Positions 1,008-20,000 of a stretch of 20,000 bases of DNA are shown here, piece by piece. The notes beneath the pieces are model-generated. The model was not told the DNA's origin, did not search any database, and saw nothing but the letters and a program-made list of their open reading frames with translations. The stretch lies in IMG/VR virus record IMGVR_UViG_3300031951_000033; one strand, given 5' to 3'. This DNA comes from an uncultured virus (IMG/VR IMGVR_UViG_3300031951_000033). Lineage: Duplodnaviria; Heunggongvirae; Uroviricota; Caudoviricetes. Position 1 is the first letter of the stretch. The number at the start of each line of letters is the position of its first letter. A program made the position numbers and the translations under genes.

Positions 1008-1457
1008 ATGGCTGAAGAACAGATATCTAGCTACATAGATCAGCAACGCTGGCTTTTGAATAACGGCATAGTGTCTGATGGCATGAAGAATCAACTGTTC
1101 TTTTACGGCTCGTTAGTTCACAAGGAAGTCCAAGCAGTGGAGCTTGACATAGACGTGTCTGAGCGCGTAATGAAGTATCGCATATATGTTAGCGACTCTT
1201 TGTTAAGCAAGATGGACAAGTATAAGAGACTCTCTACCTCCACGAGCCTGTTTGGGATGTGGAGATTTCAGAGACTCCTCAAGAGTGAGGGTAGCCTGGA
1301 TTTCCAAAGCATGCTCGCGAAATTTGTCCTCGATTTTTGTGGCCCTAAGTGGTTCACTAAAGTTGAGGTTCTCAGCTTTGACAAGTATGTTGAAGTTGCG
1401 GGGGCTGAAAGTGGAGACGAGGGAGACAGTCTGCAGTCTAATAAATTGCCTGACTGA
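1008..1457 (+). CDS. Hypothetical phage protein (149 aa)
   Basis: ATG 1008 follows GAGGA (999-1003); GTG 984 is an alternative start. No motif recognised. Confidence 0.75.
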   Translation: MAEEQISSYIDQQRWLLNNGIVSDGMKNQLFFYGSLVHKEVQAVELDIDVSERVMKYRIYVSDSLLSKMDKYKRLSTSTSLFGMWRFQRLLKSEGSLDFQSMLAKFVLDFCGPKWFTKVEVLSFDKYVEVAGAESGDEGDSLQSNKLPD

Positions 1458-1839
1458 CAACGAGGATTTAAGACAGGAACTCTGGGTTCATTATCTCAGC
1501 GGTAACCCCGTAGACTCTTTTTCTGAGCACCTAGAAAAGCTAAAATCAGAGCAAGAAGATCACGCATATATAAGCTCTACTGTGTGGCAGCTACTTAAAG
1601 GGCAATACGCAGAAGAGTTCTCTGTTGTTGTTGAGGCCTTATCTGACTACGAGCGCTCTGTGATGTTCCTGGCAATACTGGGGTTCTCTGTGCCCACTAT
1701 ATCGGAGCGTAAGGGTATAAGCCAAGTAAGAATTAGACAAACTTTGACCAGCATAAGGTATAATGACGTTTGGTGCAAAATATATGGCGTTAAAGACCAA
1801 ACTAACAGAAGAAGAAAAGTACAGCCTGTCAGAGGCTGA
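1411..1839 (+). CDS. Small sigma-factor-like protein with a region-4 HTH (ECF-like, about 142 aa)
   Basis: In-frame GTG 1411 follows GGGGG. C-terminal LSDYERSVMFLAILGFSVPTISERKGISQVRIRQTL fits the sigma region-4 pattern LSxxERxV..GxSxxEIA..GISxxRVRQ. EDLRQELWVHYL resembles ECF region-2 EDLxQExFL. Confidence 0.6.
   Translation: METRETVCSLINCLTDNEDLRQELWVHYLSGNPVDSFSEHLEKLKSEQEDHAYISSTVWQLLKGQYAEEFSVVVEALSDYERSVMFLAILGFSVPTISERKGISQVRIRQTLTSIRYNDVWCKIYGVKDQTNRRRKVQPVRG
1757..1764 (+). promoter_or_regulatory. Putative internal promoter (GGTATAAT) for the terminase genes
   Basis: GGTATAAT ends 19 nt before ATG 1784 and matches the motif seen in the intergenic gaps. Confidence 0.45.
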
Positions 1840-8512: not shown

Positions 8513-9889
8513 TCAAGGATCGTACGCGTGTCCTTCGTGGATCCTAGTTTTAATTTCTTTAGGAAAACTGCTGTATTCCTCGTCTGTCAATTTAGAGCCT
8601 GCCGGTTTTTTATTAAAAGTACCGTGAGTTTCATGGAGAAGATCTTTATGTTCTCTCGGTAAAGACATGTATCGTTCGTGCGAGACCGAAGATCCTTTAG
8701 GCGGCATTTCAAGATAATTTTTAGGTGCGTGGTTTGTTTCGTCGGTTTCTATTTTTACCTTAGACTCAGGCGCTTTTGGCTCAGCAACGTAAGATGGAAT
8801 TTGAGCGGGTGCTTGTATTTGCTGCGGTTCAGAGTGAAAGGTCGTATACTTTTGGCCTTCTGGCGTAACATGCTCTTTCACGTAGCTTTGTGCGTCGTAC
8901 GCCGATTCACCTAATTTTGCTGCACGAATCTGTGCGGCGCGCTTAGCATTTTCTGCTGCCATATCACTGACATTACCTAGGTTGTAATTTTCCGCGAGTC
9001 TTTGCGCTCTTCTGTCTATGCTGCTGGGTATATCTTGTTTAACCTGTTTGGTTTCTTGCGCAATGTTTCTTATTCTATTAGGGTCACCTTTAATTCTAGT
9101 TATAACCTTAGGATTAGAAGTAGAAACTTTAACTTCTTGCGGTGATAGCTGTCTCATTATGTCTGGCAACGCCATGTCTATAGCTGCCTCTCCAAGGCCG
9201 TAACCAGCTAGAATTTTTCTGGCCTCATCTTCCCTTTCCTGAGACACAGTTCTCATGTCCGGTCTTGCTGACACGCTCGCTTCTTTACCGCCAAATCCTC
9301 TGCGCCCTTTCAGATCCATCAGGCGCATTATGTTTGCGTCTCGGTCTTTACTGTAGCCTCTCATCTCATCGATGGTTCTTTTTGCTTCTTCGTGCATGTG
9401 TTTAGGCGGCAAGCCGAATTTAATCCTCATCAGCGCATCATTGTGCTCTTTCATGCCTTCAGGCCTTACGACCATCCTTCCGTCTTGATCTTGCACAACG
9501 TGTCTCTGGGCTATATCTCTGTTCATCTCAGCCCATTTTTGTTTCTCTTCTTCGTTGGCCGCCTTTCCTTCGTGAATTCTTTTGGCCTCGCCGTATCTTT
9601 TATTTCTTTGCTCTGCGGCGTCAAGCAGCTCTTGCCGCACTTTTCTCTCGTCTATCTCAGGGCCTCGCTCTGCTTTTTCTTTGGCTGACTGTTGAGCCTT
9701 AAGCTCTGAGTTTTTGCGCCTGATTTCTTCTCTCTGCTCTGGTGTGTATCTTTCGGATATACGATTAAGGTAATTTTGAATGGCAGAATCGTCAAACTTC
9801 GAAGGATCTATCTCGCTGTAATTTTTGCCAGCCTTTTCCAGCAGTTGCCATTGCCCGTTTTTAAGTGCCTTAAGGAGTTCGTTAGCCAT
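8513..9889 (-). CDS. Hypothetical charged/helical protein (458 aa), candidate internal head protein
   Basis: The only long minus-strand ORF. ATG 9889 is preferred because the 9961 start overlaps the protease gene. N-terminal LLKA and LEKA motifs; two C-terminal ~30-aa repeats. Confidence 0.8.
   Translation of the reverse strand: MANELLKALKNGQWQLLEKAGKNYSEIDPSKFDDSAIQNYLNRISERYTPEQREEIRRKNSELKAQQSAKEKAERGPEIDERKVRQELLDAAEQRNKRYGEAKRIHEGKAANEEEKQKWAEMNRDIAQRHVVQDQDGRMVVRPEGMKEHNDALMRIKFGLPPKHMHEEAKRTIDEMRGYSKDRDANIMRLMDLKGRRGFGGKEASVSARPDMRTVSQEREDEARKILAGYGLGEAAIDMALPDIMRQLSPQEVKVSTSNPKVITRIKGDPNRIRNIAQETKQVKQDIPSSIDRRAQRLAENYNLGNVSDMAAENAKRAAQIRAAKLGESAYDAQSYVKEHVTPEGQKYTTFHSEPQQIQAPAQIPSYVAEPKAPESKVKIETDETNHAPKNYLEMPPKGSSVSHERYMSLPREHKDLLHETHGTFNKKPAGSKLTDEEYSSFPKEIKTRIHEGHAYDP
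8516..8707 (-). repeat. Two protein-level repeats PxGS-x6-Y-xx-[LF]P-xxx-K-xx-[LI]HExH
   Basis: MPPKGSSVSHERYMSLPREHKDLLHETHG and KKPAGSKLTDEEYSSFPKEIKTRIHEGHA. Confidence 0.75.
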
Positions 9890-9953
9890 AACAAAGATTC
9901 TATCATGAGGTTTTGGCTTAATGTTTGTTTGTGGTAAAGTATAGAGTAGTATT
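9890..9953. promoter_or_regulatory. Divergent promoter region with two -10 boxes at leaderless spacing
   Basis: Minus strand: TGATAGAAT (9905-9897) ends 7 nt before ATG 9889. Plus strand: TAGAGT (9942-9947) ends 6 nt before ATG 9954, and TGGTAAAGT lies at 9932-9940. Neither gene has a clear SD. Confidence 0.55.
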
Positions 9954-10958
9954 ATGGCCAAAAAACCTTTAGAAGTGGATATGTGTGCAGGAAGTCAGCT
10001 CAGAGATACGCAGGGAGAGATGCTCTCTGTAGAGGGTGCCGACATATCTGAGCTGTTGGCAGGCAACGGAAGACTCAACGATAATCACGGAAAAGGTTTC
10101 TACAATAGTATTGGCAAAATCACGGGCGCCAAGAAGATATTTAAGGCAGAAGATTGCGAAGATGATCGCCAAAAATATTACTGGGAAAAGATAAAAGCCC
10201 CTTACATCTACGTTAAGGGGATTCTTTATGACGACGAAGAGCACCCTAACGCTAAGGCCGCAGCTGCTATTTTAAGGAACATACATAAGACCGATTGTCC
10301 GCTAAAGATTAAGGCCTCTGTAGAAGGCGGCGTGCTTTCTAGAGGCGTAAAAGACTCTTCACTTCTTGCTAGAACCAAGATTCATTCCGTGGCTCTTACG
10401 TTTACTCCTGCCAACAATGCTACTCTTGTTGAGCCCACCAATCTAGATAAGTCTAATTTTGACGAGAAGGCAGATATGGTGCTTATAAAGTCTGTTATGC
10501 ACCTTGCGGAGAAAAATGTTCCGTCTTTTCGACATGTTACGCGAGATGCGTCTGCCACCAAGATAACTAATAATTTAGCTAAAATGACTGAACTTCTCGC
10601 TAAGGCTGGAGTAAATGTTGATAATATAAAGTTGCCGTCTAAGGCGTCTATAATCGAAAAGGCACTAGAAAACAAGATAAAAACAAATATAGCTAAGATA
10701 AAATCTAGCTTAAAAGATGCACAAAAGCCGCTCAGTAAGGCTCTAATGGCCGGTTATGGTGGAGCTGCAGCGCCGGGCGCTAGAGTTGGCGGAAGTGTCG
10801 TACAATCTGAGTCTCTAGACTTCAGCCCGCCTATGAAATACATAGTGTGCGATGATTGCGGAAAATCGCAGGTTTACGCCAAGCATCAGGTGAAATGTCG
10901 CCACTGCAATAAGAGCTTTAGCCTAGAAAAGCTGTTTCGCACCTTAAAGCGCCCCTAA
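9954..10958 (+). CDS. Prohead (capsid maturation) serine protease with C-terminal capsid-like peptide and Zn ribbon
   Basis: RDTQGE, RLNDNH (catalytic His), ASVEGG (catalytic Ser) and VALTFTPAN are motifs of the HK97-type caudoviral prohead protease. C-terminal CDDC...CRHC. Confidence 0.88.
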   Translation: MAKKPLEVDMCAGSQLRDTQGEMLSVEGADISELLAGNGRLNDNHGKGFYNSIGKITGAKKIFKAEDCEDDRQKYYWEKIKAPYIYVKGILYDDEEHPNAKAAAAILRNIHKTDCPLKIKASVEGGVLSRGVKDSSLLARTKIHSVALTFTPANNATLVEPTNLDKSNFDEKADMVLIKSVMHLAEKNVPSFRHVTRDASATKITNNLAKMTELLAKAGVNVDNIKLPSKASIIEKALENKIKTNIAKIKSSLKDAQKPLSKALMAGYGGAAAPGARVGGSVVQSESLDFSPPMKYIVCDDCGKSQVYAKHQVKCRHCNKSFSLEKLFRTLKRP

Positions 10959-10986
10959 ATTACTGTTAAGTTTAACCAGAAGTGCC

Positions 10987-11003
10987 TGATATACTGGTAC
11001 AGT
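10987..11003 (+). promoter_or_regulatory. Putative extended -10 promoter(s) for the capsid operon
   Basis: TGATATACT (10987-10995) and TGGTACAGT (10995-11003) upstream of SD AAGGAG and ATG 11055. Confidence 0.5.
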
Positions 11004-11054
11004 ACTAAAAATGAGTTTAGTAAAACTCTTTTAATAAAGCAAGGAGATTATAAA

Positions 11055-13909: not shown

Positions 13910-13945
13910 GGGGCTAGATACTATGTGTCTAGCCCCCTTTTTTTT
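13910..13945 (+). terminator. Rho-independent terminator after the major capsid gene
   Basis: GGGGCTAGATAC-TAT-GTGTCTAGCCCC forms a 12-bp stem (one G-U), followed by C and T8. Confidence 0.9.
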
Positions 13946-14378: not shown

Positions 14379-14410
14379 AGGCCGGGAGCGATGTTCCCGG
14401 CCTTTATATT
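14379..14410 (+). terminator. GC-rich hairpin, probable terminator or regulatory stem
   Basis: AGGCCGGGA (14379-14387) pairs with TCCCGGCCT (14395-14403), followed by an AT-rich tail. The upstream flank is also A-rich. Confidence 0.6.
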
Positions 14411-14419
14411 TAGTATAAT
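14411..14419 (+). promoter_or_regulatory. Putative promoter -10 (TAGTATAAT)
   Basis: TATAAT at 14414-14419, ending 40 nt before ATG 14460. Confidence 0.55.
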
Positions 14420-14459
14420 CCTCTCATGGGGAACATCGCTGGGGTGCGACGAGGGGAAC

Positions 14460-16076
14460 ATGGCGAATAAAAACGCTAAGACCGCTGACAAGAGAAGGGA
14501 AATAGTTCGTAAGTTTGCCAACTTAAATAAGAAACTTCTTCGGCGTCCTACCGAGCAGGAGATGCTGGACGCTGGTTATGCTAGAAGTATGATCAGGCAC
14601 TACTTTCCTACAGTAGGAAGACTTGAGGCTGAGGCCAGAGACCAGTATCCCGATTGCTTTTTCGATGTTGGTATATCTGAAATAATAAACCAAGATGTTG
14701 TTAGCGTCCTCAGAGATAAGATTAAAGCGCATAAGCGCTTCGTTATAACATCGGCAGTTACAGGCTGCCAGGTCGATCAAAAATTCTATAAAAGCATAAA
14801 AACTTATTGTGCCGCCAATGACGCCATTTTACTGGTGCTCATCGCTTCAGATCCCGCACAAACAAAGACGAACAAAAAAGGAGATCACGGGACTGTGGAC
14901 TCGACTCTTGTAGACGAGTGCATAGTCTTTGAAGACACCGATCTCAATTCAAACCTGTTCCTAAGTACCATCAAGTTGAGCGCTAAGCACATCGATCCCA
15001 CCACCGGGCTAGACCGCATCGGCCAACGTGACGGCAGCTTTATATTTGCTTCCCCTAAGCAGCGCTTGCAGATGGTAGCAACCTCAAATATAAAGCTGCC
15101 TCATGCCTTAATGACAACAGGCGCGATAACGCTGCCGAACTACAAGACTGACTCCTATATGAGCGAACGTACGGCTTATATCGCCGATCACGACCACGTT
15201 ATGGGCGCCATAATAGTTGAGATACAGGACGATTCTGTCTATCATTACAGACAAGTACAAGCATCAAGGAAAGATGGATCGTTTCATGATCTAGGGCGCA
15301 AATACGGACCTCAGGGCGTGTCAGAGGATCTTCCCGTTGCGTTGGTATTGGGGGATTGGCATTCGGGAGAGACAGATCCCGTTGTCGTTAAGTGCACTGA
15401 AGAGATGATCTCTGAACTGAAACCTCGTACTCTTGTGCTGCATGATGCCTTTAACGGGCTGTCTATAAACCACCACGAGGATCATAATCTGGTGGCGCAG
15501 GCTATAAGATACAAAAACTCTCAACTTCTCCTGAAAGATGAGATACAGAAGTTCGCAGAAGATCTAGAGTGGCTATCTAGCAAGGTTAAAGAGCTGGTTA
15601 TAGTTAAATCGAACCATGACGAGTTTTTGAGCAAACATTATCTTGCTGAAGCCAAATACGTCAAGGATCCGCACAATCACTACTATTGTCTAGAACTAGC
15701 TAAGGCCATGATAGAGGGACATGATCCGCTCAGATATGCTGTTTTTAAGATTAACTCCAAGCTGCATAACGTTCTGTGGTTGCAGCGAGATCAAGACTTT
15801 AAGATAGCTGGAATACAGTTGGGGTCCCACGGTGATAAAGGCCCTAACGGTAGCAGAGGCTCGCTGAGAAATGTAGAGAAGGCTTTTGGCGACTCTATAA
15901 CAGGACATTCTCATACCCCTGGTATACTGCGAGGCGCTTGGTCTGTAGGCACGTCTAGCTTTCTCAAGTTAGGTTATAATCAAGGCCCTAGTTCTTGGGT
16001 ACAAGCGCACTGTCTGGTTTACGCTAACGGGGATCGCCAAATACTCAGTATAATCAACGGTCGCTGGCGTCTCTAG
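14460..16076 (+). CDS. Phage T5 A1-like metallophosphoesterase/DNase with N-terminal HTH-like segment (538 aa)
   Basis: SD GAGGGG before ATG 14460. KRFVITS, TTGAITLPNY, GAIIVE, GDWH, HD, NHH, SNHD, DQDFKIAGI, HGDKGPNGSRG, TGHSH, GYNQGPSSW and YANGDRQ are colinear with T5 A1 as I recall it. Confidence 0.85.
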   Translation: MANKNAKTADKRREIVRKFANLNKKLLRRPTEQEMLDAGYARSMIRHYFPTVGRLEAEARDQYPDCFFDVGISEIINQDVVSVLRDKIKAHKRFVITSAVTGCQVDQKFYKSIKTYCAANDAILLVLIASDPAQTKTNKKGDHGTVDSTLVDECIVFEDTDLNSNLFLSTIKLSAKHIDPTTGLDRIGQRDGSFIFASPKQRLQMVATSNIKLPHALMTTGAITLPNYKTDSYMSERTAYIADHDHVMGAIIVEIQDDSVYHYRQVQASRKDGSFHDLGRKYGPQGVSEDLPVALVLGDWHSGETDPVVVKCTEEMISELKPRTLVLHDAFNGLSINHHEDHNLVAQAIRYKNSQLLLKDEIQKFAEDLEWLSSKVKELVIVKSNHDEFLSKHYLAEAKYVKDPHNHYYCLELAKAMIEGHDPLRYAVFKINSKLHNVLWLQRDQDFKIAGIQLGSHGDKGPNGSRGSLRNVEKAFGDSITGHSHTPGILRGAWSVGTSSFLKLGYNQGPSSWVQAHCLVYANGDRQILSIINGRWRL

Positions 16077-16110
16077 CAGCAACTGTTTTGTCCGTTAAGC
16101 CTTCTTCTAG

Positions 16111-16119
16111 TGGTATAAT
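16111..16119 (+). promoter_or_regulatory. Extended -10 promoter (TGGTATAAT)
   Basis: Identical to the motif at 966-974. Intergenic, upstream of SD AGGAGA and ATG 16151. Confidence 0.7.
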
Positions 16120-16150: not shown

Positions 16151-16507
16151 ATGAAGACGTCAAACTTATCAAACAATGCAATAAGGCAGTCTGAAGTAGG
16201 CCATGCCTGGGTAGAAAGACTCACTAACGCTACTGGTACGCTCTATGTGCCCAAGTTAACTACCTTCAGGGTTAGAAGCGTTACTGCAGGAACTACAGTC
16301 ACTATAGACGGTGTTCTCGCTATGACTATGGCAGCGGGCGAGATCGCAGTATTCAATGTTGGTCTTGGCGACGCAAACTACGTTCCCTCTGCTCCCAACA
16401 TGAGCAAGAGTTTGGTGGAGATCAAGGTACAAGTTAACAACGCGTTCCTTCAGATCGCAGCAGACAGTGACATAAGGTACTACGCTAACATAGTTGCGGG
16501 GCCGTAA
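16151..16507 (+). CDS. Hypothetical beta-rich protein (118 aa), possibly structural
   Basis: SD AGGAGA. Thr/Val/Ala-rich. No family recognised. Confidence 0.75.
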   Translation: MKTSNLSNNAIRQSEVGHAWVERLTNATGTLYVPKLTTFRVRSVTAGTTVTIDGVLAMTMAAGEIAVFNVGLGDANYVPSAPNMSKSLVEIKVQVNNAFLQIAADSDIRYYANIVAGP

Positions 16508-16508
16508 C

Positions 16509-18074
16509 ATGAGCATGAAGAGCTTCAGAAAATTGCTCGTAAAGAAAACGGCAGAAGGCTCTGATCTTCGTAAACTTGTCAAGGGGATTTTTGACGAGGT
16601 TCTTGAGCATTATGTTGTAGAGCGCTTAGAAAAATATGAGCCGCATGGCAATGCGGTTGATAGCGCGGTAACTCCCGCTGTTTCTCATTTTAAGGCTCAG
16701 CACCTTAACGACAACACGGTTGACACTATCAGGCATGCGATGGCGCATCATGTCTCTGAGTACAAGGCAGCAAGACAAGCAATGCATGATCCCGAGCAGG
16801 CTCAACATAAAACTGCGCTGCGAGATATAGCGGATAAACATCTTTCGGTTATGGTGCCGATGATGCATCTCGTGATGAAGGCTAGTAACAAAGACGGACC
16901 TCTTTGGACTAAACACGCCTCTATTCGTCCGTGGGAGATGAACGTCACTTCGCCAGAAACAAGAGGCGAAAGAGATGACAAGTCTCCAAATAAGCCGCAC
17001 AGAGGAACTAAAGGTTGGCGTATACGCGCTAATCCAAAATCTTCTAGCCCTTATACTCCGAAGGATTACAGGTTTTTAGAACAGCCTGCGCATCCCGCTC
17101 ATCATAAGTTTTCAAAAGATCCCCAGTTGCAGGGCCACGAAAACCACGCGTATCCGTGGGAAGAGATACAGATCGGTCATAAAAGCGCCGTAGATCAAAA
17201 TAAGGCGCATCTTCCGATAGATAATAGGAAATTAAGTGTTGACGCTAATGGTGCTCCTAAGTATGTACCGCATATTTTTGATTCGCACCCTGTTATGGAA
17301 GACATAATTCCGGATGCTGCTTCTCATTCTTATGGCGAACATTCTCCTAAGGCTATCGATATAAGACAGCGAATGGACGACTGGCATTCCAGCCCGGAGT
17401 TTTTCGATTTTCTAGATCATCCAGAGGTTTCGCCTAAAATTGCGCGTGATGAAAATGGACATCATGTTGGTGGTCACATTAAGCCTGAGCATGTTCACAG
17501 TGGTTTGCCTACCGCTGAAGCACCAGCACACAACGTTAATGCAAGAATTGTTTCTGAACAGAGATATAGTCCAATAGATTACTCTAAGAGTGGAGCCAAT
17601 ATGCCCGCTGGATCTAAGCCGCCTAAAAAGGATATTAAAAAAGACCCGCTTATCATGAGGACTCTTGCGCCGTTGCAGGAACAACAACGACAGTATGTTC
17701 AAGAAAAACTAAAAGATCCTAAAATACAGCGCCAGATAGATCTGGCGCTCGGTCGCCAAAAACCTGCTGCTGCACCTGTACAGGCTGCGCCTGCATCAAA
17801 ACCTGCTGCTGTAGAAAAACCGTCTGTGCCTCAAGCAGAAGAGTATGATCTCTCAAAGATGCCTGAAGGGGCAATGATAGAGCCAGATACGTATCATGCC
17901 TTGCCAGACAGCGTTAAGTCTATGCTCCATGAATCACATGGCTCTAAGCCTAAACCTAAATCAGAGCCAGATTTTTCAAAGCCGCCAAAAGGCTCAAACT
18001 ATTCTCAGAAAAATTGGGATGAATTGCCGCCTAAAATTAAGGAAATTATTTATAGGTCGCATGGTGGAGGTTGA
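16509..18074 (+). CDS. Hypothetical His/Pro-rich protein (521 aa), candidate internal head protein
   Basis: ATG 16509 begins 1 nt after the previous stop. Long ORF with an Ala/Pro linker, then two C-terminal repeats shared with the 8513-9889 protein. Confidence 0.8.
   Translation: MSMKSFRKLLVKKTAEGSDLRKLVKGIFDEVLEHYVVERLEKYEPHGNAVDSAVTPAVSHFKAQHLNDNTVDTIRHAMAHHVSEYKAARQAMHDPEQAQHKTALRDIADKHLSVMVPMMHLVMKASNKDGPLWTKHASIRPWEMNVTSPETRGERDDKSPNKPHRGTKGWRIRANPKSSSPYTPKDYRFLEQPAHPAHHKFSKDPQLQGHENHAYPWEEIQIGHKSAVDQNKAHLPIDNRKLSVDANGAPKYVPHIFDSHPVMEDIIPDAASHSYGEHSPKAIDIRQRMDDWHSSPEFFDFLDHPEVSPKIARDENGHHVGGHIKPEHVHSGLPTAEAPAHNVNARIVSEQRYSPIDYSKSGANMPAGSKPPKKDIKKDPLIMRTLAPLQEQQRQYVQEKLKDPKIQRQIDLALGRQKPAAAPVQAAPASKPAAVEKPSVPQAEEYDLSKMPEGAMIEPDTYHALPDSVKSMLHESHGSKPKPKSEPDFSKPPKGSNYSQKNWDELPPKIKEIIYRSHGGG
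17859..18071 (+). repeat. Two protein-level repeats of the same family as 8516-8707
   Basis: MPEGAMIEPDTYHALPDSVKSMLHESHG and PPKGSNYSQKNWDELPPKIKEIIYRSHG. Confidence 0.75.
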
Positions 18075-18077
18075 CTC

Positions 18078-19913
18078 ATGCCAGGATTTGTTAAAACTCC
18101 AAAAGATGAAGCTCGTTGGCACAAGGCCAAACAAGCTGCAAAGAAGTCTAAAAATAAAGAAGAAAGCGAATTCTCTGACAGAGATTGGGCTCTTGTAAAT
18201 CATATATACCATAGCATGTCTAAGTCTCATAGCGTCGAAGATATATCTAAAGATATGCTTTTTGCCGTCAAGATAGGAGACGCTGCGCTCGTAGATTCCT
18301 TGCTTGCTAAAGCAAAACACATGTCATCGATTGGTCAAGGCGATGACCTTGAGAAGGCTAGACCAAAAACTTACGATGAAGATTATTTGCCAGACGAAGA
18401 TCAGCCGGAAGAGTATGAGCCGGAGATTATAGAAGAAGAGGACCTTAATAAGCCGCAATTAGATGAGAACGAAGAACCAGAAGAGCGCGAACAAGACGTA
18501 GATCCTAGATCGTTCGACGTTTCTCAGATGTTTGATGAACCTTCAGACGAGTATGAAGAAGGATTTGAGCCTGAAACTGCGGTAGGGAGACAAAAACCCT
18601 CTAAGGCACATAGAGAAGATATGACGCCCGAGCAGCTTGAGGCGGTGCGACTCTTTACTGGGCCTCTCGAAGCGCATAACAATAGGCTTCGCAATGTAAA
18701 CGCAGAAGCACATGTTAACCCCGAAAAATTTAGAAGGGGTCGTCAGATAGCTGCTGTTCATGACGCCATGCGAGATCATAAAGGTGCTATCGAGCAACTT
18801 AGAAGTTCTGAAGAATACAGAAAGTCTACTCGTGGGCAACAGGCCCGGCTTGAAGCTGAATTCAATAAAAAGTGGAAAGAAGAGAATCCAGAGCACCAGC
18901 AAAAAGTTGTGTCTGCTATGGCTGAAGCGCGCGAGCATGCCGCCCGCGCAAAAGAACTTCATGGTGCAAACAAACAGCTTCAGTCTCAACACATCTTAAG
19001 GGGCGCAACTGCTGGTTCTGGCATAATGTCTTCAGAGGCTGCCGCTCAGCATGTTGGTGGCGTACGTGGCGACGATGAAGGCCCTACTGTAGCCGGCGTA
19101 ATGCAAGATCCTGCTGCCCCTTTCGCTAGAATGCACTCTAAAATACTTCAAGGTTTGGAAGGTAGATTGCGAGGAGCATCTCCATCCATGAACGAAGATG
19201 AATTTCAGCAAGCCAAGGAGTCTTTGGCTGGTGAGATAAGGCAAATACAGTTGGACGCGCCCAAAATACTCAAAGATCCTGTAGTCAAAAAGATATATGA
19301 TAATTTTGTCGGCAAATATTATCCTCTGATTACGCAATCAGAGAGAAAGATATTGAATAATCCAGATTACTCCATGCATAGAGAACATGTCGGACAAGGA
19401 GATCTTGTAGAGCCTGGGCTGCACGCACTAATTAACGCCGTCAATACCTATAATCCCGAGCACCACTCTAAGGCGAAATTTCCCACTTATGCTCAGGGGC
19501 TTATCACTAATGCGATGAAAAATCATCTCACCGAAGAATATCGTCGCGCAGTTCCCTTAGAACTCAGAGAACAAGCTAAGGCGCAAACAAAAGCAGGTAA
19601 AATGCCTAGTCCACAGGTACCTGCACCTAGCACTGAGCGTAAACAGTTTGTTGAGCAGGCTGCGCCTAAAGCAACTACGACAGTCGCACCAGAAAAACCC
19701 GCTATGCGCGATCCGTTCAAGCACGCCGCCATGAATCCCGAGCGCACTCAGAGAATGCACGGCGTTAATGCGGCAAAGAGCGTAATAAGGCGCACGCCTC
19801 AGGCTACTGCTGCGGCTGCACCGGTCAAACAACCAAAGATACATCACGATATCAGCAGCGAGATAGAGAGCGAGATGAGTGGTTATAGTGGTTTCGGAGG
19901 AAACAATGAGTAA
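18078..19913 (+). CDS. 611-aa protein with acidic N-terminal region and an isolated sigma-70 region-2 domain
   Basis: SD GGAGG. Residues ~410-485 FVGKYYPLI...DLVEPGLHALINAVNTYNP...AKFPTYAQGLITNAMKNHL match sigma region 2 (FliA-type YLPLV...DLIQxGxIGLxxAxxxYDP...KFxTYAxxRIRGAMxDxL). No region-4 HTH follows. Confidence 0.75.
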   Translation: MPGFVKTPKDEARWHKAKQAAKKSKNKEESEFSDRDWALVNHIYHSMSKSHSVEDISKDMLFAVKIGDAALVDSLLAKAKHMSSIGQGDDLEKARPKTYDEDYLPDEDQPEEYEPEIIEEEDLNKPQLDENEEPEEREQDVDPRSFDVSQMFDEPSDEYEEGFEPETAVGRQKPSKAHREDMTPEQLEAVRLFTGPLEAHNNRLRNVNAEAHVNPEKFRRGRQIAAVHDAMRDHKGAIEQLRSSEEYRKSTRGQQARLEAEFNKKWKEENPEHQQKVVSAMAEAREHAARAKELHGANKQLQSQHILRGATAGSGIMSSEAAAQHVGGVRGDDEGPTVAGVMQDPAAPFARMHSKILQGLEGRLRGASPSMNEDEFQQAKESLAGEIRQIQLDAPKILKDPVVKKIYDNFVGKYYPLITQSERKILNNPDYSMHREHVGQGDLVEPGLHALINAVNTYNPEHHSKAKFPTYAQGLITNAMKNHLTEEYRRAVPLELREQAKAQTKAGKMPSPQVPAPSTERKQFVEQAAPKATTTVAPEKPAMRDPFKHAAMNPERTQRMHGVNAAKSVIRRTPQATAAAAPVKQPKIHHDISSEIESEMSGYSGFGGNNE

Positions 19914-20000
19914 TCATGACGATAAAACCGGCTCATCTCAATATTACGACGAGCTGGTTGGCGAAGGTTTTATACCATCGTCCGATCCTAAGCCACCAAG
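19906..20000 (+). CDS. Hypothetical protein, 3'-partial
   Basis: SD GGAGG (19896-19900) and ATG 19906 overlapping the previous stop. Open to the window end (MSNHDDKTGSSQYYDELVGEGFIPSSDPKPP). Confidence 0.65.
   Translation, partial: MSNHDDKTGSSQYYDELVGEGFIPSSDPKPP

Follow-up and report, generated by a model that had tools for sequence, protein, structure and literature searches.

Does this phage carry, beside its virion genes, a sigma factor cut down to region 2, and what could such a protein do? The question arises from a 20,000-nucleotide stretch of DNA (the window) from an uncultured member of the Caudoviricetes (IMG/VR record IMGVR_UViG_3300031951_000033). Close to its end lies an open reading frame (the target) that an initial annotation read as capsid cargo bearing a lone sigma-70 region 2, and hence as a candidate virion-delivered transcription factor. 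To our knowledge, phage sigma factors without sigma-4 are known essentially from the T4 gp55 system. In that system (PMC2988020), gp55 sits on the beta' coiled-coil; its homology model is based on sigma domain 2, and the protein also possesses a flexible linker and an epitope at the C-terminus. Its companion gp33 is a sigma-4 mimic, and the two are "invariably encoded by widely separated" genes.

Identity of the sigma domain

Residues ~396-507 of the target are a genuine sigma-70 region 2 domain (Table 1). The segment first singled out as region 2 (19305-19540, residues 410-488) falls within it, and that call was correct: a profile of 19 homologs matches solved FliA/SigD/WhiG sigma factors at E 1.1e-11, a family profile of 71 homologs finds FliA-type sigma structures among PDB sequences at E down to 1.7e-14, and sigma-2 folds are the best structural matches. 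All but one of the 47 PDB sequences at E<=0.01 to the 71-homolog profile are sigma factors, the exception being KIF7. The Pfam model Sigma70_r2 aligns with target residues 441-488 at E 0.0028 and 17.9 bits, under its 24-bit cut-off, and is found (E<=0.05) in 18 of the 71 family members, with a best E of 3.3e-6. A Sigma70_r2 match, on which the initial annotation had staked its reading, is therefore sub-threshold with Pfam alone, but is borne out by the family profiles together with the structural match to sigma-2 domains.

Table 1. The target, its parts and its neighbours in the window (position 1 is the first nucleotide of the window)
Feature	Position	Strand	Basis or remark
Intrinsic terminator after the major capsid gene	13910..13945	+	12-pair stem with 7 G-C pairs, then CTTTTTTTT
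Putative promoter of the three-gene unit	16095..16119	+	TTAAGC box 16095-16100 and exact TGGTATAAT 16111-16119
o16151, first gene of the unit; small beta-rich protein, 118 aa	16151..16507	+	Ortholog in 27/27 loci
o16494, predicted partner	16509..18074	+	Ortholog in 27/27 loci, abutting or overlapping the target start
Target, open reading frame of 611 aa	18078-19913	+	Stop codon 19911-19913
Helical N-terminal module (MPGFVKT...WALVNHIYH and LEKAR-type helix), residues 1-86	18078..18335	+	pLDDT about 88-96 mostly
Acidic disordered linker, residues 87-180	18336..18617	+	pLDDT <50
Helix in place of sigma region 1.2, residues 184-207	18627..18698	+	Structural alignments
Helical insertion, residues 208-395	18699..19262	+	Model helices 215-311 and 347-387
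Sigma-2 domain (regions 2.1-2.4) with the putative first helix of region 3 (3.0), residues 396-507	19263..19598	+	Profiles, Pfam, fold search
Pro/Ala-rich disordered tail, residues 508-611	19599..19913	+	Model, conservation
Start of next gene (MSNHDD...), overlapping the last 8 nt of the target	19906..20000	+	Frame; N-terminal likeness to downstream genes in related loci L020 and L022

The AlphaFold2 model of the target has a mean pLDDT of 77. In a structure search independent of Foldseek, its best match is SigB (8x6g_H; Z 8.2, rmsd 2.3 A, 91 residues aligned), and other sigma-2 domains are also matched (pro-sigmaK, Z 7.7; SigE, 7.5; RpoS, 7.5; sigma70, 6.8; T4 gp55, 6.6); according to the tool, helical models commonly reach such Z values, and the identification therefore leans mainly on the sequence profiles. 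Foldseek with the whole model returned nothing from the PDB at E<=0.001, nearly all of its top rows being sigma chains, and from BFVD its best match was one uncharacterised phage protein (E 3.8e-3).

Within the family, the mean top-residue frequency peaks in region 2.2 (0.73), followed by region 2.3 (0.68), and is 0.42 in regions 2.4 and 3.0. The phage segment LHEAGMHGL aligns with LMQAGMIGL of FliA, and the target, a divergent copy, retains E445, G447, H449, L451 and A454 of region 2.2. Its regions 2.4 and 3.0 are strongly diverged (QGLITNAMKNHL versus NKIRGLMQTALR in the family); most family members share a uniform 2.3-2.4 sequence, THAxNKIRGLMQTAL. Regions 2.3-2.4 of sigma factors are those that read the -10 element. 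In these factors, the region 2.2 helix docks on the beta' clamp helices (PMC2988020). Because this helix is the best conserved segment of the family, it is reasonable to infer that the target binds core RNA polymerase.

Architecture of the target

Past region 2.4, the profile alignments extend into the first following helix (FliA residues up to about 117-150), and the model has a helix at residues 494-507; Sigma70_r3 is matched by none of the 71 family members. The absence of region 4, with only a Pro/Ala-rich tail in its place, had been pointed out before and holds: none of the 71 members reaches E<=0.05 with a Pfam model for region 3 or region 4, and the tail is modelled as disordered except for a single helix of 17 residues (554-570, nt 19737-19787) with the family motif HP..P...DRLKR. 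In these searches, the truncation is a trait of the family (0/71 with region 3 or 4). Since sigma-4 is missing, we file the target as a sigma-2-domain protein derived from the sigma-70 family and not as a complete sigma; it is a real but incomplete sigma factor, in which the polymerase-gripping part is present and the -35-reading part is absent.

Aligned with sigma-2 structures, the model is spanned from residue 180 to residue 488, yet only about 91-102 of its residues are paired. In the model, residues 208-395 form an insertion where sigma70 has its non-conserved region, and this insertion always accompanies the sigma part across loci. The acidic linker carries, in an alignment of the relatives' N-termini, a conserved motif, EFDPDEE...WLxENDP. 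It had been likened to the acidic tract of the scaffold; the tract is there, but homology to the scaffold-like protein is absent (BLASTP E 5.3).

The small helical motif that had been noticed at the N-terminus is likewise real and conserved, as part of the N-terminal module. The module HMM matches 10 of 22 distinct orthologs as well as the window copy, whereas the other 12 have no module or only a stub of it; it therefore cannot be an essential loading signal for the family. A degenerate DNA pattern recovered the module in 57 IMG/VR loci, 43 of them with different C-terminal parts, while locus searches with three module-bearing proteins yielded one locus or none, and an ESM Atlas look-up gave only unnamed viral clusters below a useful score. 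When the neighbours of module-bearing genes were scanned at 22 loci, 13 lay within morphogenesis blocks: ten preceded the tail sheath region at a distance of 1-3 genes, one stood between terminase and portal, another close to a portal and one among virion structural genes. At five of the 22, no structural neighbour was seen at the threshold used. One module-bearing protein of 1004 aa is of the polyvalent type and carries an InPase domain. A ~340-aa gene that precedes the small module genes was considered as the capsid gene, but this found no support, the gene having no PHROG at E<=0.01 and an Mx1 homolog annotated as hypothetical. Among five near-complete relatives the module occurs once in two genomes and is absent from three, and neither the window nor any of 27 loci, searched to a distance of 10 kb, shows a second copy; with at most one copy per genome, it is not a tag common to several cargo proteins of one phage. 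The four K-[SAD] sites named as candidate cleavage points do exist, but do not stand out as a signal, since 15 of the 48 lysines occur in K-[SAD] against about 11 expected from composition.

Operon, promoters and partner

As read from the DNA, the target is the third gene of its own transcription unit behind a putative TGGTATAAT promoter. The initial annotation had placed it in an operon downstream of the capsid gene. This is partly correct: the position is downstream, but a strong terminator (hairpin at 13910-13936, then a T run) separates the capsid operon from the downstream genes, a T5 A1-like gene lies in between, and the unit has its own putative promoter. Because the genes between the capsid gene and the operon are non-structural (A1-like; thymidylate kinase, exonuclease and CYTH), position alone is no proof of a virion role. 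On the other side, the gene after the target starts -64 to +1 nt from the target's end at all 10 loci examined. Its orthologs match phrog_772 (tail fiber label; E 9.9e-30) and phrog_442 (a weak head-tail adaptor match; E 8.6e-4), as in L007:11298-12302, and the ortholog in the complete 176.5-kb relative G004 matches phrog_772 at E 8.4e-29. The order o16151, o16494, target, neck/tail gene is kept in 27/27 related loci, and in all 27 the three-gene unit lies between head and neck genes.

No -35 hexamer is found 16-18 bp from the TGGTATAAT of the unit. Of 23 distinct sequences, from 22 loci plus the window, 17 have GGTATAAT or something close to it 26-38 nt upstream of the o16151 start, often preceded by a hairpin and a TTAAGT-like box. 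Promoters of the TGGTATAAT type, as earlier proposed, are present and enriched in the window: at <=1 mismatch the motif occurs 12 times against 3.2 expected, a count reached in 0/200 shuffles. In the complete relative, 29 intergenic TGnTATAAT sites lie upstream of genes without a -35 consensus. The box-plus-TATAAT layout of the unit's promoter is the same as that of the capsid operon promoter, and five of the seven gene-proximal matches to this layout in the complete relative precede virion genes. The promoter analysis did not assign the TGGTATAAT promoters to a host or a phage sigma.

Of the two genes ahead of the target, o16151 has no PDB sequence, Pfam or PHROG match. The product of o16494, whose conserved start is the ATG at 16509 and whose family members measure 390-526 aa, combines a conserved N-terminal domain of ~340 aa that is rich in His with a Pro/Ala-rich tail and a short motif at the C-terminus; it has no Pfam, PHROG or PDB sequence match and nothing in the ESM Atlas, and its model gives a best solved-structure Z of 4.8, which is noise level, and one uncharacterised BFVD match. 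Complex prediction suggests that the target probably pairs with o16494, docking through the insertion. The ipSAE is 0.73 (runs 0.74, 0.71 and 0.73) against 0.00 for the best of three controls, with a predicted interface at target residues 188-206 and 220-285, partner pLDDT of at least 71 and runs that agree in at least 18% of contacts. In the calibration of the tool, which holds only roughly here because our own alignments were used, an ipSAE of 0.73 is reached by 116 of 157 solved complexes and by 2 of 215 mismatched pairs. No comparable complex has been solved, o16494 being without relatives in the PDB.

Distribution of the family

A search of 1.84 billion representative proteins gives the target 206 relatives at E<=0.001, and the phages that carry the family are freshwater myoviruses of ~150-177 kb. 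The target matches no PHROG family. Against 50,697 phage records, tblastn with the target, a typical relative (P0008), o16494 and o16151 found no match, and neither did megablast with the whole window, in a collection that may omit the window's own genome or very near ones; the nearest record to the window (G001, 14 kb) lacks the target gene. In Myxococcus phage Mx1, a profile search found no member of the family, and a different Sigma70_r2-like frame is present. Full-text searches of the literature brought up neither a sigma factor carried in virions nor any description of the target family.

A PF04542 scan of five near-complete ~150-177 kb relatives matched only the target's ortholog, in one of the five, and nothing else; as the scan missed four of five known orthologs, another divergent sigma could escape it. 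G004 encodes 175 proteins of at least 100 aa; among the 150 of them compared with PHROGs there is no RNA polymerase, no other sigma and no relative of gp33, gp45 or clamp proteins. For comparison, gp33 itself has 112 residues.

Discussion

What might a phage do with a sigma factor that lacks region 4? The reading we prefer, with a confidence that is about evenly balanced, is that the target is a phage-made incomplete sigma acting with a partner as a split sigma, much as T4 gp55 does. The target would form a complex, through its insertion domain, with the product of the translationally coupled upstream gene o16494; the pair would dock on host core RNA polymerase at the beta' clamp helices and would direct or hold transcription on phage promoters with a TGGTATAAT-type -10 element and no -35 hexamer, in a manner resembling that of gp55 (sigma-2 only) working with gp33. 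From the position of its gene, the target would be made together with the head, neck and tail proteins. There are also observations that sit uneasily with a phage sigma. Ordinary primary sigma factors read extended -10 promoters without a -35 box, so the TGGTATAAT motif needs no phage sigma. Moreover, the window promoters share the TGGTATAAT of the relatives despite the diverged regions 2.4 and 3.0 of the target, which fits recognition by a host sigma as well or better. An apparently late virion operon is also an odd site for a late-gene switch factor, an oddity that would be eased if a host sigma also reads the unit's promoter or if the particle carries the protein over.

The last point touches on the proposal of the initial annotation, that the protein is packaged. 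Extended to the partner, it would have the target enter the prohead, by itself or together with o16494, and leave it along with the DNA, trimmed or untrimmed; once in the cell, the target would immediately capture host core for -10-only promoters or displace host sigma. We consider this possible but doubtful. Delivery adds a route to the split-sigma function and does not exclude that function; combined, the two would give a two-subunit "portable sigma", in which the sigma-2 protein and its orphan partner are capsid-loaded and injected with the DNA, an idea that we rate as rather unlikely. Such a factor would let phage -10-only promoters be read from the first moment without host sigma. The operon runs straight into neck/tail genes, the next gene overlapping the target stop (19906), and the unit sits between head and neck genes in 27/27 loci behind a promoter laid out like that of the capsid operon, all of which is consistent with delivery; against this stand the non-structural genes in the capsid-to-operon gap. 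No other Sigma70_r2 signal turned up in the five near-complete relatives, and the relative scanned with PHROGs yielded no polymerase gene; a factor that is made late and taken along to the next cell follows the logic known from the phage N4 virion polymerase (named in PMC5512222). The N-terminal module speaks on both sides: it heads 43 other IMG/VR proteins, its genes lie in morphogenesis blocks at 13 of 22 loci and one of the proteins is InPase-bearing and of polyvalent type, but it is absent or a stub in 12/22 distinct orthologs, occurs at most once per genome in the five near-complete relatives and has no structural neighbours at 5/22 scanned loci. Further counts against delivery are the chance frequency of K-[SAD] and the lack of homology of the N-terminus and acidic tract to the scaffold. 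In the 50,697 phage records searched by tblastn, none of the three genes has a cultured relative.

Conservation within the sigma domain bears on whether the target reads promoters at all. It is conceivable, if improbable, that the sigma-2 domain reads no promoter and only occupies the beta' clamp helices against host sigma, as a decoy or inhibitor serving host shut-off; the acidic linker would then act as a DNA mimic in the way of sigma region 1.1. Conservation peaks in the core-binding helix 2.2 and drops in regions 2.4 and 3.0, the DNA-reading part, where the target is diverged; there is no sigma-4, and a long acidic disordered tract precedes the sigma-2 domain. However, region 2.3 is nearly as conserved as region 2.2 (0.68 versus 0.73), and the uniform THAxNKIRGLMQTAL of most members suggests a shared DNA-facing function. 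Expression alongside virion genes would also be late for a shut-off factor, unless it is packaged, and 611 aa plus an obligatory partner seem elaborate if all that is needed is a plug. A use of the fold away from RNA polymerase, with the three proteins as structural or assembly parts of the head-neck region, would agree with the placement of the unit between head and neck genes in all loci, with the long disordered tails of the target and o16494 and with the lack of functional annotation for either. Yet the conserved positions are those of the sigma core-binding helix and the profile match to working sigma factors is strong for so short a domain, and we regard this exaptation as highly improbable.

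The split-sigma reading draws on a likeness to T4 that has clear bounds. Both proteins are of the sigma-2 type without sigma-4, gp55 sitting on the beta' coiled-coil (PMC2988020), where the target would be expected to dock as well. In both, the sigma-2 part is followed by a flexible C-terminal linker and a short conserved end segment. As with gp55, gp33 and gp45, the promoters are of the -10 type only and a second phage protein, in our case a predicted one, would complete the factor. Bacterial sigma-2 domains match the target model better than gp55 does (7d7d_F; Z 6.6, but rmsd 7.3 A over 111 residues), and there is no detectable sequence kinship to gp55, the target being nearest to bacterial FliA, SigD and WhiG. 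The target is three times longer than gp55, with its N-terminal module, acidic linker and 190-residue insertion, and its gene lies within a virion operon. Its partner is a 390-526-aa orphan predicted to sit on the insertion, whereas gp33 is a known flap binder. The target and o16494 genes are adjacent and coupled; those of gp55 and gp33 are widely separated, according to that source.

The family is unannotated (no PHROG, sub-threshold Pfam) and without detectable sequence kinship to gp55, yet shows the same truncation, and it differs from gp55 in its sigma70-like insertion, its obligatory adjacent orphan partner and its virion-operon location. It may represent a second independent case of steering polymerase with sigma-2 alone and of replacing sigma-4. 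If the pair is particle-borne, sigma factors would join the short list of phage-injected transcription proteins, and the N-terminal module would become a candidate marker for other delivered proteins; if the portable sigma is true, it would be the first virion-delivered sigma factor. Packaging of the N4 virion RNA polymerase and of T4 Alt has been demonstrated (as cited in PMC5512222, whose text has 0 occurrences of the word "sigma"). By analogy with these two proteins, the target is a candidate for a late-made product of a virion gene block that could influence transcription as the phage enters. It differs from the T4 IP/Alt type in that no leader shared by several head proteins of one phage turned up in the five near-complete relatives, the window or the 27 loci, and from typical polyvalent proteins in having one recognisable domain and no MuF, peptidase or other typical domain, although the N-terminal module is shared.

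By sequence, the closest proteins are the group 3 sigma factors FliA/sigma28, SigD and WhiG, with ~100-120 residues aligned from region 2.1 through 2.4 into the beginning of region 3. Group 3 factors possess both region 3 and region 4 and recognise the -35 element, whereas the phage family has neither region (0/71) and carries extra N-terminal parts. With E. coli sigma70, the target shares the succession of a helix, a large helical insertion and regions 2.1-2.4. The acidic N-terminal part of sigma70 is region 1.1; an acidic part precedes in the target too, but it has no region 1.1 homology, and regions 3.1-4 are missing. The fold search showed no likeness of the target insertion to the non-conserved region of sigma70, the matches restricted to the insertion being to generic helical proteins. 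Over model residues 180..487, sigma70 (1sig_A, residues 113..446) aligns at 102 residues with Z 6.8 and rmsd 3.4 A.

Domain identity and architecture

It is near certain that the target protein, encoded by the last gene of a three-gene unit, carries a sigma-70 region 2 domain and that its family lacks sigma-4 (regions 4.1–4.2) throughout. Pfam Sigma70_r2, a check suggested in the initial annotation, aligned to residues 441–488 with E 0.0028, but its 17.9 bits fall short of the 24-bit threshold. Relatives at E≤0.001 numbered 18 in a clustered collection of 5.8 billion proteins, one of them named 'specialized sigma subunit' by one source, and 206 among 1.84 billion representatives, 28 at E≤1e-30. 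A profile of 19 relatives matched the solved sigma factors FliA, SigD and WhiG at E 1.1e-11 over regions 2.1–2.4 and the next helix, and the profile of the 71 aligned relatives reached E 1.7e-14; 46 of the 47 PDB sequences at E≤0.01 were sigma factors, the other being KIF7. With the whole AlphaFold2 model (71-row alignment, mean pLDDT 77), Foldseek returned no match at E≤0.001, its top rows being nearly all sigma chains. In an exhaustive alignment to 48,161 PDB representatives, sigma-2 domains ranked first (SigB Z 8.2, rmsd 2.3 Å, 91 aligned; pro-sigmaK 7.7; SigI6, SigE and RpoS 7.5; WhiG 7.4; sigma70 and sigma28 6.8; T4 gp55 6.6), but since Z below ~8–13 is common for helical models, the identification rests on the sequence profiles, with the fold concordant. 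None of the 71 family members matched region 3 or 4 models, and 18 matched the region 2 model. Residues 508–611 are Pro/Ala-rich and modelled as disordered except for helix 554–570, which bears the tail's sole conserved motif, HP..P...DRLKR. Given these profile, fold and region 3/4 results, the core of the initial observation, a region 2 followed by a Pro/Ala-rich tail instead of region 4, is correct beyond chance.

Many alignments to sigma-2 domains cover model residues 180–488 yet align just ~90–100 residues (within the sigma70 fragment 1sig_A the span is 113–446), so that helix 184–207 stands in for region 1.2. Residues 208–395 are a helical insertion where primary sigma factors have their non-conserved region; insertion and sigma part are never apart in 27 loci. 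Upstream of helix 184–207 lies an acidic disordered tract, with a conserved EFDPDEE...WLxENDP motif in relatives, and before it a helical N-terminal module. Region 2.2, the docking helix of sigma domain 2, is more conserved than any other part of the protein (mean frequency of the top residue 0.73, compared with 0.68 for region 2.3 and 0.42 for regions 2.4 and 3.0), and regions 2.4 and 3.0 have clearly diverged in the window's copy.

Gene setting and promoters

The window is a portion of a large tailed phage. Its capsid protein shares ~31% identity with the capsid proteins of SPO1-like Bacillus phages, and IMG/VR relatives reach contigs of 177 kb; G004, a complete 176.5-kb genome bearing terminal repeats, is that of a myovirus and encodes sheath and baseplate proteins. 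The segment 16000–20000 is present in 20 public DNA runs, which come from 16 studies and carry freshwater or fungus metagenome labels; ten of them may be the window's own source. All 27 related loci (22 distinct) keep the order protease, o11055, scaffold, capsid, a variable 2–4 kb, o16151, o16494, target; the variable stretch holds the A1-like gene in the window and some relatives, and thymidylate kinase, exonuclease and CYTH protein genes in others.

Features of the window
Feature	Coordinates (strand)	Product	Remarks
ORF upstream of large terminase	1252-1839		weak Mycobacteriophage Gp53 (E 7e-4) and Sigma70_r4_2 (E 0.021) matches
SbcD-like nuclease			recognisable gene
Large terminase			recognisable gene
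Portal			recognisable gene
Reverse-strand ORF	8513-9961 (-)	482 aa	strongly negative AT skew region
Prohead protease	9954-10958	334 aa	recognisable gene
Box and -10 layout	10959-11054		
Acidic scaffold-like protein			recognisable gene
Major capsid protein			recognisable gene; phrog_752
T5 A1-like metallophosphoesterase	14391-16076		after capsid gene; phrog_1745, E 5.7e-101; 'DNA transfer protein'
TGGTATAAT	16111-16119		promoter of three-gene unit
o16151	16151-16507 (+)	118 aa	unannotated, after A1-like gene
o16494	16509-18074 (+)		unannotated; predicted partner
Target	18078-19913 (+)	611 aa	unannotated, last of three
Next gene	start 19906		phrog_772 (labelled tail fiber); weakly a head-tail adaptor family

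The gene had been placed in an operon downstream of the capsid gene. This holds as to co-transcription with virion genes, because the three genes abut or overlap and the next, tail-type gene overlaps the target's stop codon in the window (its start lies -64 to +1 nt from the target's end in 10 of 10 loci examined). It does not hold as to the operon of the capsid gene itself, which in the window ends at a strong terminator behind that gene; the unit is served by a separate promoter that lacks a -35 hexamer at normal spacing. Of 23 distinct sequences (the window plus 22 loci), 17 have GGTATAAT or something close to it 26–38 nt ahead of the start of o16151, usually with a small hairpin ahead and often with a TTAAGT-like box 11–13 nt upstream, and the capsid operon promoter shares this layout in 16 loci. 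Box plus -10 occurs 14 times in G004 versus 6.3 ± 2.3 in shuffles; seven copies lie just upstream of genes, five of them preceding virion genes. The layout reads TTAA(G/C)T, 10–13 nt, then a TATAAT-like element with (T)GG directly before the -10, the upstream box being closer than a normal -35. Sites occur in the window, upstream of o11055 in loci L001–L025, and in G004 (L031–L039), where portal, sheath and other virion genes are also preceded by it. We take the spacing to be reminiscent of T4 middle promoters with a MotA box.

The predicted partner protein

In the o16494 product, a conserved His-rich domain (~340 residues) is followed by a Pro/Ala tail and a short C-terminal motif; the protein could be assigned to no family, has no relative in the PDB and drew no convincing fold match. 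When target residues 175–611 and o16494 residues 6–350 were modelled as a complex, the ipSAE was 0.73 (runs 0.74, 0.71 and 0.73), and three controls all gave 0.00. In calibration, 116 of the 157 solved complexes and 2 of the 215 mismatched pairs attain this mark; the calibration is rough here because custom alignments were supplied. Partner pLDDT was 71 or higher, with 18% or more of contacts agreeing between runs. No structure resembling o16494 has been solved, which makes it unlikely that the score reflects memorised complexes; the two proteins are predicted to pair. The confident predicted interface comprises the region 1.2-like helix and the insertion (188–206, 220–285) plus 456–459, and excludes the face of helix 2.2.

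Possible roles of the target

The most likely mechanism, with about an even chance of being right, is a gp55-like split sigma. The target would bind core polymerase via region 2.2 and carry o16494 on its insertion, and two flexible tails with conserved ends would reach toward further partners. In T4, gp55 and gp33 grip the clamp by two arms, and domain 2 of gp55, like that of sigma factors, docks on the beta' coiled-coil (PMC2988020); the proposed tails of the target and o16494 could correspond to these arms. The gp55-type kind is known; what would be new is a sigma-2-only phage family with no sequence kinship to gp55, built differently and with a predicted obligatory orphan partner.

G004 has 29 intergenic TGnTATAAT sites (at most one mismatch) upstream of genes of all kinds, with G at position -1 in 18 and no -35 consensus. 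Such promoters would suit a factor having just sigma-2 and helix 3.0. However, ordinary primary sigma factors likewise read extended -10 promoters, and in the window region 2.4 has diverged alongside unchanged promoters, so either a host or a phage sigma may read these sites. In five near-complete relatives (153–177 kb) the Pfam region 2 model matched once, on the target's ortholog, its silence elsewhere being weak evidence since four known orthologs escaped it. G004 encodes 175 proteins of at least 100 residues; the 150 of these scanned against PHROGs included replication, recombination, nucleotide-metabolism and virion proteins, and no RNA polymerase, other sigma or clamp. Delivery of the target in the virion, which is compatible with a split sigma, would account for the sole sigma found so far lying in a virion operon; we regard it as possible but doubtful. 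Apart from the N-terminal module, the signs of capsid cargo proposed initially fail, as K-[SAD] sites occur at chance level (15 observed versus ~11 expected) and no homology of the acidic tract to the scaffold was found. Full-text literature searches listed no paper on a sigma factor carried in virions or on the target family, and no cultured relative offering virions for analysis was found. That the protein is purely a decoy seems unlikely, and that it is an exapted structural protein very improbable.

Of the clues to capsid cargo, the N-terminal module is the most promising. It is recognised in the window and in 10 of 22 distinct orthologs; in others a stub remains (such as 'ALIKTPKSED' in locus L022), so the family's core function does not need it. 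Five near-complete relatives have one or zero copies per genome. A degenerate DNA pattern retrieved 57 IMG/VR loci, 14 of them target orthologs (12 with the sigma part, two cut by contig ends) and 43 other proteins of 18–1093 residues. The ~50-residue module (MP[GA]F[VI]KT..DE..W..AK...W.L.N.I[YF]; loci L041–L097) is a mobile N-terminal domain, borne by these 43 otherwise unrelated phage proteins, and many of its bearers are short, basic and of low complexity. Among 31 distinct module proteins of at least 100 residues, one has InPase and DUF5856, three DUF5661 and two DUF6582 (one also DUF5824), the remainder showing no Pfam domain at family cut-off. The text of the polyvalent-protein paper does not mention sigma (PMC5512222). 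When 150 of 246 neighbouring ORFs were scanned (22 of 29 loci), the module gene lay inside a morphogenesis block in 13 of 22 loci (in ten it belongs to a conserved block, 1–3 genes ahead of the tail sheath region; the other three have it between terminase and portal, close to a portal, and amid virion structural genes), and five had no structural neighbour at E≤1e-8. By association, these positions suggest that the module has a role tied to the head or neck.

Other features

A profile search found no member of the target family in Myxococcus phage Mx1. Its 338-aa open frame (L099, record 2506–2685), outside the family, matches Sigma70_r2 below threshold (E 4.3e-5, 20.9 bits), and the gene directly before its tail sheath (WNM70344, 559 aa) encodes a low-complexity Pro/Ala-rich repeat protein. 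In the window, the ORF upstream of the large terminase most likely encodes a small-terminase helix-turn-helix rather than the missing sigma-4. The A1-like gene, between the capsid gene and the operon, shares 40.9% identity with one from Ochrobactrum phage vB_OspM_OC, and a hairpin and TAGTATAAT (14411) lie upstream of it. The 482-aa ORF has an ortholog in none of the 27 related loci. At its C-terminus it repeats a motif, LP..K..LHE.HG, that also occurs in the window-specific extension at the C-terminus of o16494 (BLASTP E 5e-8); the ORF may be a lineage-specific insertion with the same short motif. The prohead protease ends in a Cys-rich, zinc-ribbon-like part (weak TackOD1 and HypA matches), and relatives' spans are ~1100–1700 nt (~370–570 aa; L001 1372–3045, for example). 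By eye, an AGYGGA...GG.V.Q.ESL motif recurs in the protease's C-terminal part and the capsid protein's N-terminus, and could mark a maturation cleavage region.
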